A stretch of DNA of 64,000 bases from Euglena gracilis (Eukaryota): the NCBI GenBank assembly GCA_039621445.1, contig CP154954.1:19764642-19828641 (forward strand), in the 5' to 3' direction. Positions within the stretch are counted from its first letter, which is position 1, and each line of letters starts with the position of its first letter. A program made the translations under genes and the position numbers. The notes below the pieces were generated by a model, which saw only the letters and a program-made list of their open reading frames with translations, was not told the DNA's origin and made no database searches. This document shows, piece after piece, positions 34,901-63,280 of this stretch.

Positions 34901-37900
34901 TTTTGGCCAAAATGCCTTCATTTCAGCTCTTTTTGGTGATTTTGGTTTAATTTTGGGTTTATTGTTGGAAATTTGTCTAAGTCCTTTTTCCCTTAGGAAT
35001 GTCACAAACTCAGCGCATTTTTTGCGCATTTTTGCGCATTTTTGCGCATTTTTTCCGAGGGCCGTCCAGCGCATTCCCCCCCCCCCTGATATATACATAC
35101 AGCCAAATTCAGCCATTTTTCCTGTGGATTTTCCATTGGATGTGAAAGGGGCGGATTTTTTTTCCCCGCCCAAGCGCCCTAATTCCATCAATTGAAACGT
35201 CATTTTGATTTTTGTGGAAGCCGCCCAAAATTTTCAGGGCATTTTAAGGTTTTTTTTCTGCCCAATTTTTTTTCAGTTTGTGAGCTGTGCTTTCAGGTCC
35301 ACTGAAAAAAACATTTCTTTTCAAAAAGCTCAGAACCAAGTCTTGTCAACAGCGCACCAACTCGTCAAGCGCCTCATGTTGCAGGCACCGCTTGGCAGAG
35401 TCGTCTACCCTGACTTCTTTCGCCCAGAGACCCAAAGCCAGGGCCCACCAGCTTTCACCGCTGGGGGAGGGGGGGACGGTGACAACGACGGCCAACGTGC
35501 TGTTTGTCCGGGCGTTCCCCAAGCGCACCTGGTTTCCTCTGCGGAGAACCCCTGGACGCTCGGCAACCCAATGGAACAGCCTGGCGGGTCGCACTCATGC
35601 AGGGTCTCGTTGGCGCCCGTCCCAGACATGGGACCAGGGGTTTTTTTTTTTTAGTCTTGGACCCCAGGGGGGAGGGGGGGGGGTGGGGGGGATGGTCCGG
35701 CCGAGCCCCCCCCCCAGGGGGGGGTCCCCAGGGGGGGGGGGGTGGACTGCTGGGGTCGTGGACTGGAGTAACTGGTGCGTCGTCACGGTGAAGGAGACCC
35801 CCCCCTAACTAAAGTGGAGTATGTGCCTGGCAGGCGCTTGGTGGCCGGCGTCGTAAACAAGGTAAGTCCTGCCAGGCTCCGGCCACCTCCACATACACAG
35901 ACAAAAAGGACCAGAGGCGAACAACAGCGCCAGGCCAGACGAAGGGATAAAAGGCACCAAAAAACAGCCACAGTGCACACAGGGGGGGGGGGTATATTTT
36001 TTTCGGCGCCGAAGGCAGCGATTTTTTTTTGAAAAAGGTGCTATTGTTAGCATTTTTTCGCGATTCTTTGGCCTTTTTGGGGGAAAGTGGGTTGGGTCCC
36101 CCGGACCCCCCCCCCCGGGTCTTAAAAAAAAAACCGCCCAGGAACCAAAACGCAAAAACACGTTTTCAGGATGTGTAAGACTTCAGGATCTAAGGCCCCA
36201 GCGCGGGGCCCATAACCATTAGCCCCTTCCGTCCAGAAGACAGGGAAAACAACGGGCAGCATCGACCACCCCGGGCAGTGCTCCTCCCGTAATCGTTCGT
36301 TAGGGCCGGCGGGCCTTGAGGTTGGCTGGTGGGCACAGTTGCTGAACGAGTTCCATCATCAAGTCCTGTATGATGGATTGTAACCAGGGCTCGCAGAGAT
36401 GAGGTCTTGCTTTATTTTGGGAAATTGCCACAACAAGCAAATCAGAGTGGATTGGTTAAAAAAACACAAAAAAAAGTCAAGAAATAAGCAAATTAAGAAA
36501 TAGAACAGTATGGAGCATTAATTGTGGTACACCTCCAATTTTGTGAGCCATAGCCTTTGCCAGCCCATGGGGTGTGGTGATGGTGTGTGCACGTCCCAGC
36601 CAGCTCTGTGGCAGTGTACCCTGCAAAACTGAGGCTCTCCCCCTGGAACACTCCTTCGTTTCTGTATTTCTTGTTTCTCCTTCCCCCGCTCCTTTTTAGA
36701 TGTTATTGCCGATGTGGGTGGGGGGCCGGAAGTCAGGCTTTCCGCCGCCTTGCGTCCCCCAACGATGGTCCGGCGTCACCACACCCGCGGGCCGAGGACA
36801 CAGCGCGTCCGCCCGGCCCTGCCTGCGGCTGAAGGCCAACGCGCCGCACAACGAGGTGGACGGGGCGGTGGACGGCTGTCCCCAGAACCAGAACGGCTGG
36901 GACGCCCCGCCGTACCTGCCCGCAGGTGCGGCCCCCGGGGCGGGTGGGCGGCGGCCTCCGGGCGACGGCCCGACTTGGGCGCTGGCGGGAAAATGGGCTT
37001 GGGCGGCAGCGATGCGGGTAAGGCGTACGCGTTCACAGCCAGCGGGTGGCACAGACCGCGGTAGGACTGAACCCCGCCATAAACTTTTCGACGCAAACGT
37101 CCCGGAAATTGTTTCGGGTTGCCTTTCAGATTTGGCAACCCGTTATGAAAGTCGTCCGGAAGCGCCCATGCGGGAAATTGCTTGTTTTTATTCTTGTTCT
37201 TGTTCTCATTTGTGGAACATTTTTTTTGCTTTGCCCTGGTCGAATGCTGCCCAATGTTCGTGGGGAAGACCAGTTGAGGCTGTCTTCGGAGTGGAGGAAT
37301 AAAAATTGATACAGAAGGCACTGAGACAGTGGCCAATGGTCTCTGTCTGTCTGTCTTTCGCTCTCACTCCCGCTCTGCAGTGCCGCAGGGGAGGCTCAAC
37401 TCGCAGACCAGACCTCCATTTAGTATGTAGCACCAAAAAAATTTTTTACGTATCACATGTATCACAGCCTAAAAATTAATGTATCACATATGTATCACCA
37501 AAAAATTTTTAATGTATCATATATGTATCACCAAAAACTTTTTAATGTATCACATATGTATCACCAAATTTTTAAGAAAATTTTACATTTTTACATCAAA
37601 AATGTTTTTTTCAGCTTCCTGTTCCACTTTTTATCCTTGTTTCTTTGCCTCTCTGCAGACACATGGAACAATTTTCTTGTGATAATGTTTTGTTGGACAA
37701 CTGCACGTTCGTCTGTGAATTTTTCAGCTTACGAATTTGTGTTTCACAACTTTATTATATGTTTCACAAAGGAGAATTTGTGTATCACATATGTATCACC
37801 AAAAATTTTTAATGTATCACATATGTATCACCAAAAAAAATTAATGTATCACATACGTATCACCAAAAAAAATTTAATGTATCACAGATACGTTGTGATA

Positions 37901-61100: not shown

Positions 61101-63280
61101 TGGCATCCCGGCAGTGCCGGGAGTTGGATGGCTCAGCCGTGCCACCGCCTGGCACCGTTCAACGCCTCCGTGGTCTACCTCCGGATGTTCACCACGGAGG
61201 CAGCCAAACGGATCCCCGACGCCATGGCCGGCGCTCGCTCATTTTTCTTTCCGGGCGTGGTGAGTTGGTGCATGTGCCCGGTGGCGTGCGTGCGTCGCAG
61301 GTTTCAAGCGTTCCAGTAATGGTCCACATGAGCTGTATGATTTCCACAGCTTGTGAAACATAATGAAGGAGGTCCAAGGACAGAGGGTGAGCAGACTTCT
61401 TTTTTAAGGAAGTGCGCCCCCCCCCCCCCGGGAGGGACAGGCTGGGGGGGTGGGGGATTTTCGACCCCCCCCCGTGGGATCGCATTTTGGGGTGGGTAGT
61501 GCTATGGCACGCCCCCCGCCTGGCGCCAACGGTGCCGGGGCCCGAAAATGGCCATTTTCAAGGGACAATTGGCTTGGTCAGCAGTCACTGGGGTCCAGAT
61601 TAAGGGGGGGGTTCCTGCTATGGGCAGGCACCGCCCAGCGCAAGGCACCCCCTCCTCCCCCCGGGGGTTAACAAACAGGCAGCCTGAGGGTGAGGTTTCT
61701 GCCTCACCAAGGCCGCTCCGCAGCCTCTCTTCAGCAACGCTGCGCACTTGCATGCTGCGGCCTCGGAGGCTTGGCATGCACGCTCACCCCAGCTCTCCTC
61801 AGCACCCGCCGTGTCTCATGTCCCTGGACTATGTATACATCGACGCCCGGCACGACTACTGTGGGGTGATGGAGGACCTCCTAAGCAAGCACCTACAGCT
61901 AAAATGGCCTAAAATGGCCTAAAATGGCCTAAAATGGCCTAAAATGGCCTAAAATGGCCTTTTTGACCCCCTATAGGTGGGGGTCCCTAAAATGGCCTAA
62001 AATGGTCTAAAATGGCCTAAAATGGGAAAAATGCTGTTGCACAACACTTTTTTTTTGTGAACAACTGAATCCATTCAGGTAATGATTTTTGGTGTCTTTT
62101 GTTAATGTGGACGGCGAATGCTAATGTGGACGGTGAACAGTGCATTTGGTTGAAGAGCACAGCCCACAAAGCCCATTTTTCTTATCCCAATTAATATTAC
62201 TATCAGTCCCCAAATCCACGGCCCTCAAACGTCTTTTGGCGCTGAATTTTGAAGGTTTGGATAGCTGTATTTTGTGAAGATTTTCAGAGTGCTTCCCATT
62301 TCGGCAACTTTCAACAACCATTTGGCACACAGTATCAAACAGTTTTGAATACAACAACCAACCCAAAATGGCTAAAATTTTCCTAAAGTATGGTGAATAC
62401 AGCAAAATCGGACGAAAAATACGAAAACAGGAGAAAGGGTCGAAAACATATGTCATTGCTGCGGTCGTGGACCCCGCAGCACGTTGAAGACCCCTGCAAA
62501 GGGGGAATAAACAAAAAAAAACAGAATCAAGGAAGCGGTAAATATTCCATTCTGCTTCAAACGCCATGTTTGACAGAAATGTAACACAAAAATTGAATAA
62601 CTAACGTGATTTTCAGGAACTCAACGTTCATGAAGTAACACCAAATTGAAACGAAATGAACAGCATTGCGCCTTGCTTTCTTCTTCCAGGAGAAACAAGA
62701 GGACAGTGCAGGAAAACAGAACAAAGACAAGCTTAGAACAACAAACAAAGCGATCAAATTGGATTTCACCCAGCAACAGCATCATCTTTAAAAAAAAATG
62801 ACTTCTTTTTGCGAAATCCCGCAAAAATGGTGTTGATTTCACAAAATGCAAAAAGCCAGGCGCTGTTTTGGTAGCGCAAATAAAAACGTTTAATATTTTC
62901 CCAACATTTTTTTCTGAAAAATATTTTCACTGCTGTAAATTTGAACTGTTCAGAATTCCTGTATGGGTATGAATTAAGATTTGTTGAGCTTCCCATGGTT
63001 TTGATCCAGTGTTCATGAATTTCGCACGCTTTTTTGGCTGTACGTTTATTATCACTGAATAAGAGAAGGTTTGCATACGTTATGATACAGTTTTCGGGAC
63101 AAAAATAATGCAAATTTATGGTTTTCAGAATCCCCACCTGTGCCTTAAAATGGCCTGAAATGGCCTGAAATGGCCTAAAATGGGGAAATTTTTGGGCTTG
63201 ACTATAGGTGCTTGCTCCTGAGCTACTGGCCCAAGGTGCGGGTGGGGGGTATCTTCGCGGGGCATGACTTCTACTTTGCT
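58170..63280 (+). CDS. Class I SAM-dependent methyltransferase (Methyltransf_24-like) with N-terminal signal peptide; 3' end not resolved
   Basis: Exons 58170-~58276, ~58815-58886, ~59422-59501, 59966-60037, 61147-61220, 61818-61882, 63220-~63280 give MPTPGPPALLLALLLTLASC...VGAELGVQRGQFA...YYLVDLWQPQ...SLDYVYIDARHDYCGVMEDLLSYWPKVRVGGIFAGHDF. The ELGV-x-x-G, IDAxH-D-Y and GG-x-x-x-GHD motifs are typical of this family. Confidence 0.8.
59505..59960. mobile_element. TIR element forming nonconventional intron 59502-59965
   Basis: TIRs CAGGGCTG / CAGCCCCG; TSD GCCCCAGG / GCGCCAGG. Removal restores WQPQDNY. Confidence 0.78.
60041..61141. mobile_element. TIR element forming nonconventional intron 60038-61146
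   Basis: TIRs CACGGCTGGG / CTCAGCCGTG; TSD CCATCCCC / CCACCGCC (2 mismatches). Removal restores ARHRLAPF. Confidence 0.75.
61886..63214. mobile_element. TIR element forming nonconventional intron 61883-63219
   Basis: TIRs CAAGCACCTACAG / CTATAGGTGCTTG; TSD CTCCTAAG / CTCCTGAG; subterminal AAAATGGCCT tandem arrays near both ends. Removal restores EDLLSYWP. Confidence 0.85.

Follow-up and report, generated by a model that had tools for sequence, protein, structure and literature searches.

We have analysed a stretch of 64,000 nucleotides (nt) from Euglena gracilis (NCBI GenBank assembly GCA_039621445.1, contig CP154954.1, positions 19,764,642 to 19,828,641 of the forward strand), below referred to as the window, which contains a homologue of GH31 alpha-glucosidases (gene 1) and genes for a DUF4397 protein (gene 2) and a Methyltransf_24 protein (gene 3). 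In a previous reading of the bare sequence (the sequence-only reading), nine introns of these genes had been described as lacking GT-AG ends and as MITEs (miniature transposable elements with inverted repeats) of the hAT type, bounded by terminal inverted repeats (TIRs) and flanked by an 8-bp target-site duplication (TSD), whose removal together with one copy of the duplication would leave no scar. We have investigated the junctions of these introns, their relation to elements of the same build elsewhere in the window and the remaining introns of the three genes (Table 1, with positions referring to the window).

As exons of genes 2 and 3 match proteins from E. gracilis transcripts at or near 100% (Table 1), the window is nuclear DNA of this species. 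These transcripts define 15 introns, two with GT-AG borders and 13 without. For gene 1, a protein derived from an E. gracilis transcript was not found, the best match being a homologue of 66% identity, which could reflect low expression of the gene or, if it is a paralogue, its absence from the set of transcripts. When ten short exons were queried one by one against Pfam, three of which (61147-61257, 49450-49552 and 59966-60037) were out of frame and uninformative, only GH31 exons scored, and the PF01055 coordinates ran on continuously between them (208-230 followed by 232-278). Most other introns of gene 1 have in-frame GT/GC-AG borders, which are approximate as mapped with the 66%-identical homologue, and two tentative nonconventional introns (35436-36323 and 36382-36826, also with approximate borders) carry no repeat.

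The nine introns, a subset selected by the sequence-only reading, were found at the positions where it had placed them, each bounded by TIRs and flanked by a direct repeat of 8 bp with zero to two mismatches. If the 8-mer ending at intron position +3 is compared with the 8-mer starting at -5, the copies agree at 8, 7, 7, 7, 8, 7, 7, 6 and 7 of 8 positions in introns 1-9. Counted by repeat position, the flanks are identical in 9, 8, 8, 7, 7, 7, 9 and 9 of the nine introns, compared to 3/9 and 4/9 at the adjoining positions. The complementarity of the inverted repeats opens at the first base past the duplication (8, 7, 8, 8, 8, 9, 6, 6, 6, 9, 6, 7 and 5 of nine at positions 1-13) and drops to chance after about 13-14 bp. 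The proposed enrichment of matching flanks over controls is manifested against two null distributions: pairing the 5' end of one intron with the 3' end of another yields a mean of 3.06 matches with P(≥7) = 0.0037 (n = 272), whereas a shifted 3' 8-mer of the same intron yields a mean of 2.43 with P(≥7) = 0.0009 (n = 1088).

The junctions were placed at the level of protein sequence, using the homologue and the transcript-derived proteins. With introns 1-4 taken out, gene 1 aligns to the GH31 homologue P0001 without gaps over 127 residues at 66% identity, and this alignment spans four nonconventional junctions, the mini-exon of 20 nt that precedes intron 2 (37925-37944) and one GT-AG intron. For introns 5 and 6 the confirmation comes from P0037, as the exons of gene 2 form chains of exact words with EG_transcript_23625, and a model of gene 3 with introns 7, 8 and 9 excised agrees with P0004 at 184 of its first 185 residues. 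The frame is hence restored in all nine cases when the element is taken out with one copy of the repeat, as had been proposed. Two introns bracket the position of the cut within the duplication. At intron 6 the protein contains Q and not R, which shows that the 5' copy is kept at position 5 and that the cut falls at or after this position; at intron 8 it contains R and not P, which shows that the 3' copy is kept at position 6 and that the cut falls at or before position 5. The register common to both introns therefore places the cut between positions 5 and 6 in either copy. If this single register applies throughout, it leaves three intronic nucleotides before the helix and five after it, and the claim that the two spacers together constitute one copy of the duplication, with no scar at protein level, is supported by this bracket.

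Eight of the nine introns offer no GT/GC-AG borders at any slide yielding an identical mRNA, and intron 7 forms the exception, since it could be read as a GC-AG intron after a slide of +2. A terminal helix extending inwards from +4 and -6 is complementary at 8-12 of 13 positions in all nine introns and is formed in minimum-free-energy folds of introns 5 and 6. The strict letters CDG (+4 to +6) and CHG (-8 to -6) are present in four of them (introns 1, 2, 6 and 7), and the other five deviate at the third or first letter, having CGG/GTG, CAT/ATG, CAC/GTG or CAA/TTG with pairing kept or, in intron 5, CAG/CTT. The first exon base following the intron is a purine in all nine cases, and in 17 of the 17 nonconventional introns examined. 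Pairing of the spacers beyond the TIR is at background level (1-5 of nine per position compared to a background of 0.40), and we have dropped the idea of a helix that extends through the spacers as a substrate of the RNase III type.

Several of the introns have a composite interior. Nested in intron 3 are an element at 38306-38751 with the perfect duplication GGTGGGGC and, at ~38755-39069, a copy of the family of element 33566-33908. Intron 8 appears to harbour a nested relative of intron 6 (60177-60448), whose flanks CCCCGGCA and CCCCAGCG agree by eye at 6/8 positions. Subterminal tandem repeats of 32-33 nt are located near both ends of intron 1 (37471-37568 and 37781-37886), and repeat units of 10 nt near both ends of intron 9 (61899-62025 and 63146-63183).

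Beyond the nine introns, we have identified 13 additional elements that are built in the same way, at least seven of which are located in non-coding DNA. Introns house four of them (three in transcript-defined introns and one nested within intron 3), and another two lie in GH31 introns deduced by homology; one is located upstream of the start codon of gene 2 and six at sites without gene model. Their flanks are identical in 13, 13, 12, 12, 13, 12, 13 and 13 of the 13 elements at the eight repeat positions, compared to 5/13 and 1/13 outside, and the step in identity at exactly eight positions is common to the nine introns and the 13 further elements. An element at 14682-15840 constitutes a filled site nested in a host element (14633-16150) with its own duplication GTCCGGGG (8/8). 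The target GTGTGGGT is found single and uninterrupted in two paralogous copies of the host family, first within element 33566-33908 (~33590-33651) and second within intron 3 (38782-38843), where 51 of 62 positions match the filled site without gaps, so that filled and empty states of the same site can be compared within the window. Because elements of the same build occur outside exons and because the nested insertion has paralogous empty sites, we conclude that the 8-bp repeats are target-site duplications. The nine introns can thus be regarded as TIR-bounded mobile elements with 8-bp duplications, as the sequence-only reading had it, with the family copies, the 13 extra elements and the filled and empty sites all pointing in this direction. 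Outside the list, 10 of the 13 elements, none of them a recognised exon insertion, carry a purine at the sixth position of their duplication, which hints at an overlap between the purine rule at exon starts and the target preference of the transposase.

The signal of these elements was also investigated in scans of the window. In an offset control requiring CNG..CNG ends, a TIR of at least 9/13 and a perfect 8-mer, seven elements were obtained at offset 0, compared to a mean of 0.69 (maximum 3) at 16 other offsets. With CA..TG ends, a rival peak of 12 appeared at offset -3, which originates wholly from pairings of one palindromic motif; this motif of ~24 nt (GTGAAGTTCACCGGTGAACTTCAC and variants) is found at five sites or more between ~9926 and 12570. 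A de novo scan (TIR ≥11/13) returned 34 pairs with at most one mismatch in the duplication against 3.8 expected, mostly from two microsatellite tracts, leaving only four usable perfect pairs against 1.0 expected. A strict complexity filter was abandoned, as it threw out known elements including intron 1.

In contrast to the selected nine introns, the 13 non-GT-AG introns defined by the transcripts of genes 2 and 3 provide an unbiased set. Twelve of them conform to the 3/5 register and have helices of 8-12/13, whereas the thirteenth (58887-59421) reaches 6/13 in this register and fits with a 3' spacer of six nucleotides. The exon resumes with a purine after each of the 13. A clear repeat is restricted to five of the 13 (introns 5-9, with 8, 7, 7, 7 and 6 matches). 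The title of the sequence-only reading, which extended the duplication to nonconventional introns in general, was thus overstated, and the duplication instead marks a subset of these introns, which we assume to be the young one. We read it in this way because splicing needs the helix and apparently not the repeat, given that artificial cassettes built to the code alone are spliced. In two of the introns without clear repeat (49551-49948 and 54719-55128), a G-C closing pair replaces C-G in the same register as in CAG..CTG introns. Intron 61221-61817 contains an in-frame GT..AG pair (61260-61802) which is not used by the transcript, and the retained form would add 18 residues.

Table 1. Genes, introns and elements of the window. 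TSD values are matching positions of 8; helix values are complementary positions of 13.
Feature	Position	Strand	Properties
Intron 1, GH31	37406..37924	+	element 37409-37919; TSD TCGCAGAC at 37401-37408 and 37920-37927, 8/8
Intron 2, GH31	37945..38180	+	element 37948-38175; TSD 7/8; family of 25408-25644 and 28858-29120
Intron 3, GH31	38261..39152	+	element 38264-39147; TSD 7/8
Intron 4, GH31	39703..40206	+	element 39706-40201; TSD 7/8; interrupts a conserved 11-residue motif
Intron 5, gene 2	49316..49449	+	element 49319-49444; TSD CTCTGGGC 8/8
Intron 6, gene 2	49986..50212	+	element 49989-50207; TSD 7/8
Intron 7, gene 3	59502..59965	+	element 59505-59960; TSD 7/8
Intron 8, gene 3	60038..61146	+	element 60041-61141; TSD 6/8
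Intron 9, gene 3	61883..63219	+	element 61886-63214; TSD 7/8; TIR 12/13
Filled site	14682..15840		TIR CAGGGTTGACG/CAAGGTTGACG; perfect TSD GTGTGGGT; nested in element 14633-16150
Paralogue of the 14633 family	33566..33908		perfect TSD TTCCGGGC; contains one empty site
Element, intron-2 family	25408..25644		77% identity over ~220 nt; perfect TSD ATTTGAAT
Element, intron-2 family	28858..29120		in homology-inferred GH31 intron; perfect TSD ATCTCCGG
Element, sister of the one nested in intron 3	48410..48886		80% over ~500 nt; perfect TSD TTTGGGGG; ~400 nt upstream of gene 2 start codon
Element	24018..24461		TIR 13/13 (CAGGGTTCGATAT...); perfect TSD GCCCAGGG
Element, build of 24018-24461	2748-3186
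Element, build of 24018-24461	6331-8121
Element, build of 24018-24461	8327-8997
Gene 2, non-GT-AG intron	49551..49948	+	transcript-defined; GAG..CTC; 3/5 register; helix 9/13; repeat 2/8
Gene 2, nonconventional intron	50271..51014	+	transcript-defined; CAG..CTG; weak repeat 5/8
Gene 2, nonconventional intron	51068..51160	+	transcript-defined; CAG..CTG; repeat 2/8
Gene 2, nonconventional intron	54275..54629	+	transcript-defined; CAG..CTG; helix 11/13; repeat 4/8
Gene 2, non-GT-AG intron	54719..55128	+	transcript-defined; GAG..CTC; helix 10/13; repeat 4/8
Gene 3, nonconventional intron	58277..58820	+	transcript-defined; CAG..CCG; helix 10/13; repeat 4/8
Gene 3, nonconventional intron	58887..59421	+	CAG at +4, CTG with 6-nt 3' spacer; repeat 2/8; nested element 58970-59254 (TSD 7/8)
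Gene 3, non-GT-AG intron	61221..61817	+	ATG..CGT; helix 9/13; repeat 1/8; nested element 61392-61686, perfect TSD AGGGTGAG
Gene 1, GH31 alpha-glucosidase homologue	~27900-47000		~19 kb, ~20 exons; PF01055 matches on single exons; best relative P0001
Gene 2, DUF4397 protein (PF14344)			exons match P0037 = EG_transcript_23625, 270 aa, at or near 100%
Gene 3, Methyltransf_24 protein (PF13578)			exons match P0004 = EG_transcript_27551, 235 aa, at or near 100%
Conventional GT-AG intron, GH31	39235..39558	+	same P0001 alignment as introns 1-4
Conventional GT-AG intron, gene 2	51206..52693	+	houses element 52181-52474 (TSD 7/8)
Conventional GT-AG intron, gene 2	52818..54070	+

In our view, the nine introns are likely to have arisen when non-autonomous DNA transposons bounded by TIRs inserted into exons in the fairly recent past; these elements duplicate 8 bp on insertion, are spliced out exactly and most likely belong to the hAT superfamily. 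In the proposed mechanism, an element of the build 5'-CAGGG...CCCTG-3' with inverted repeats of ~13 bp would duplicate 8 bp of its target. According to published work, the euglenid nonconventional machinery reads the terminal helix and cuts three nucleotides upstream and five (sometimes six) nucleotides downstream of it, in front of a purine. With a helix that starts at the first transposon base, both cuts would fall at the equivalent point of the two copies, between positions 5 and 6, and the 3+5 spacer bases removed with the intron would constitute one copy of the duplication. As this sum equals the length of the duplication, the cuts would be equivalent in both copies and the exon would be restored base for base to its state before the insertion. 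Where the sixth base of the duplicated target is a purine, the insertion would do no harm from the outset. In older nonconventional introns, the helix and the register would have been kept by selection, whereas the duplication, which is dispensable for splicing, would have been lost.

The same sum would account for several published observations: the 'slidable' nature of most Euglena introns (PMC12501133), the pyrimidine|purine pattern at both junctions (PMC6221363) and the repeat of a strain-specific intron in gapC of E. agilis, which is flanked by direct repeats of eight nucleotides, longer than at the other introns of that study (PMC4770533). We regard the latter as published support for the interpretation of the duplication as a sign of young age.

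A number of points weigh against this account. The junctions are placed at protein level only, and the 5|3 register is based on two introns plus the published code. In the other eight of the 13 transcript-defined introns, the repeats reach 5, 4, 4, 4, 2, 2, 2 and 1 matches with a mean of 3.0, compared to 3.06 in the null (P = 0.60); the loss of the duplication with age is an assumption and another origin of these eight introns is possible. If the end-motif filter is omitted, offset 0 does not stand out clearly in the scan of the whole window (72 compared to a mean of 57.6 and a maximum of 75), which is too rich in repeats for an excess to show. The six further elements that are located at sites without gene model could be introns of unrecognised genes. 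Elements of the hAT superfamily prefer targets of the sequence nTnnnnAn, and this motif is faint in our duplications, with T at position 2 in 10/22 (A in none) and A at position 7 in 9/22 (T in none). Finally, no match to a transposase was found with Pfam (E ≤ 0.1) in the ten open reading frames that were scanned out of 51 of at least 170 residues in the window, where DUF5041, well below its cut-off, is the sole match.

With respect to the superfamily, the consensus of the 44 ends is CAGGG, with C in 43, A in 41, G in 29 (a purine in 35), G in 31 or A in 12, and G in 30 at the five positions, respectively. These ends match the YARNG motif that is found with 8-bp duplications in hAT elements (PMC3014272), and their TIRs of ~13 bp are within the 10-25 bp described for the superfamily (PMC3942097). 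In the duplications, position 3 is C in 11/22 and position 6 is G in 12/22, a weakly palindromic pattern in a small sample. Judged from duplication length and end motif alone, hAT membership would have about an even chance; the label 'hAT-type' is compatible with the duplication, the ends and the TIRs, but is not established by the ten of 51 reading frames scanned.

The alternative that survives best retains the mechanism and assigns the elements to another superfamily with 8-bp duplications, be it P-like, Merlin or an undescribed family. If this were the case, only the label 'hAT' would be wrong and the rest of the account would stand. We view this alternative as possible, albeit with a distinctly smaller chance. 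Elements of the P superfamily end with CANRG, which fits the purine found at position 4 in 43 of the 44 ends at least as well as YARNG does, and both the weak target motif and the absence of a hAT transposase among the ten reading frames scanned out of 51 speak in favour of this alternative. Merlin elements resemble the elements described here as DNA transposons of the same species, with two families of 8-bp duplications in E. gracilis, but they start with 5'-GG and have TIRs of 24-462 bp (PMC8101967). In contrast, our ends begin with CA (43 and 41 of 44), the first base being C in 43, A in one and G in none, and their complementarity extends over ~13 bp. The combination of CAGGG ends, an 8-bp duplication and short TIRs instead corresponds to the textbook picture of hAT elements.

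It is much less probable that the direct repeats are scars of break repair or originate from reverse splicing and re-insertion of intron RNA instead of being left by a transposase. Such an origin has a precedent, as the eight-nucleotide repeat of the E. agilis gapC intron was ascribed to double-strand-break repair (Milanowski et al. 2016, PMC4770533), and for the circular RNA of excised nonconventional introns (PMC11282704, PMC12621601) a return into DNA by copying is conceivable in principle. However, break repair would generate variable lengths, whereas the repeat length is constant at eight in 22 elements, and reverse splicing would be confined to transcribed exons, whereas multi-copy families carry their own duplications in non-coding DNA, some of them nested in one another, with an end motif that is common to the TIRs. 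A role of the repeats as identical junctions that are needed or selected by the splicing machinery, with no insertion involved, appears even less probable. This could explain why the repeat is present in all nine listed introns and why each first exon base is a purine, but eight of the 13 transcript-defined nonconventional introns are spliced without it, elements within introns bear the same repeats, and the designed features of the spliced artificial cassettes comprise CAG/CTG, 3-nt and 5-nt spacers and an exon purine, with no junction repeat named in the respective portion of the article (PMC12501133). A selection artefact, in which boundaries of a chosen subset were picked for chance repeats in a repeat-rich window with noisy unfiltered scans, is refuted for practical purposes by the profile of flank identity, by boundaries fixed independently by homologue and transcript proteins, by the two nulls (7-8 matches in eight of nine introns at a P(≥7/8) of 0.0009-0.0037 per intron), and by 15 other GH31 gaps with 140-896 boundary combinations each, among whose best two candidates per gap 7/8 was never reached.

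The introns described here are of a known kind. Euglenid nonconventional introns (Milanowski et al. 2014, 2016) follow the experimentally defined code 5'-N3CDG-/-CH'GN5-6|R, which in its strict form is present in 61.2% of cases, and their spacers of 3 nt and 5-6 nt were shown by experiment, in which even fully artificial cassettes were spliced (Nomura et al. 2025, PMC12501133). The nine introns share with them the absence of GT-AG ends, the helix at +4/-6, the 3/5-nt spacers, the purine as first exon base, borders that are slidable through junction repeats and the residence in genes that also contain GT-AG introns; they are members of this group, with no difference in kind. Added here are a repeat of exactly 8 bp that is flush with the TIR, families that also occur outside exons and the finding that eight of 13 unbiased introns have no repeat.

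A comparable behaviour is found in the Introner elements of Micromonas and Aureococcus (Huff, Zilberman and Roy 2016, in PMC11282704) and in the MITE-derived introns of Fritillaria borealis, which are likewise non-autonomous insertions into exons with TIRs and a duplication and are spliced out with one duplication copy without leaving a scar. In these systems removal is carried out by the spliceosome, with splice sites provided by the element and a duplication of 3 nt, whereas the Euglena introns employ the euglenid helix-measuring code and an 8-bp duplication and are reportedly circular after excision; GT/GC-AG borders assembled from element and duplication are absent in eight of the nine. 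Compared to hAT MITEs and elements of the Ds type, the shared features are the 8-bp duplication, CAGGG ends that fit YARNG, TIRs of ~13 bp and, as in the layout of non-autonomous Ds-type elements, the subterminal repeats of larger copies (introns 1 and 9). The differences are a weakly visible nTnnnnAn motif and the lack of a linked transposase; membership in the superfamily is putative. A Ds insertion in maize is reportedly spliced as an intron, in work attributed to Giroux et al. 1994.

The question of how euglenid nonconventional introns originated has awaited an answer since the 1990s, and a transposon theory of intron origin is still posed as a question (PMC6221363). Parts of the account given here are already in print: a MITE origin was proposed in 2014 (PMC3935182), a legend in a 2024 review (Fig. 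3D) labels a 'TSD' at the junctions with CAG/CTG as TIR (PMC11282704), the eight-nucleotide repeat and the 3/5 spacers are described in the studies cited above, and RNase III together with a ligase has been put forward for the splicing reaction (PMC12621601). The explicit sum of 3+5=8 and the assignment to hAT were not found in the literature searched, which comprised open-access articles apart from their supplements and from Guminska et al. 2021. The priority that the sequence-only reading had left open thus concerns this sum, a useful and testable refinement. As to the question of origin, the window contains nearly all pieces of an answer, namely young introns with intact 8-bp duplications, sister copies of these elements in non-coding regions, a filled site whose paralogues are empty and older introns with the helix only.

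A more far-reaching proposal, which we regard as tentative and rather doubtful, is that nonconventional splicing and one family of 8-bp-duplicating transposons have become co-adapted, with an endonuclease that takes the end of the transposon's own terminal helix as its reference and measures off 3 and 5 nt. If so, any insertion into an exon would be silent on landing, provided that the sixth base of its duplication is a purine, and the purine bias at this position (10/13) would reflect a target preference that matches the splice rule. The mass gain of introns in Euglena (71.8% of the introns of E. agilis) would then be a direct consequence of the splicing system, and the elements themselves may have moulded its machinery or contributed it. 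The sum of 3+5=8 points to autonomous elements with CAGGG ends and to an endonuclease measuring from the helix end as the components to look for.

Besides the transposable elements, long microsatellites consisting of AT/GT, (AC)n and (TG)n tracts are located between and inside genes 2 and 3, at 53.7-54.0 kb, 55293-55450 and 57511-57648.

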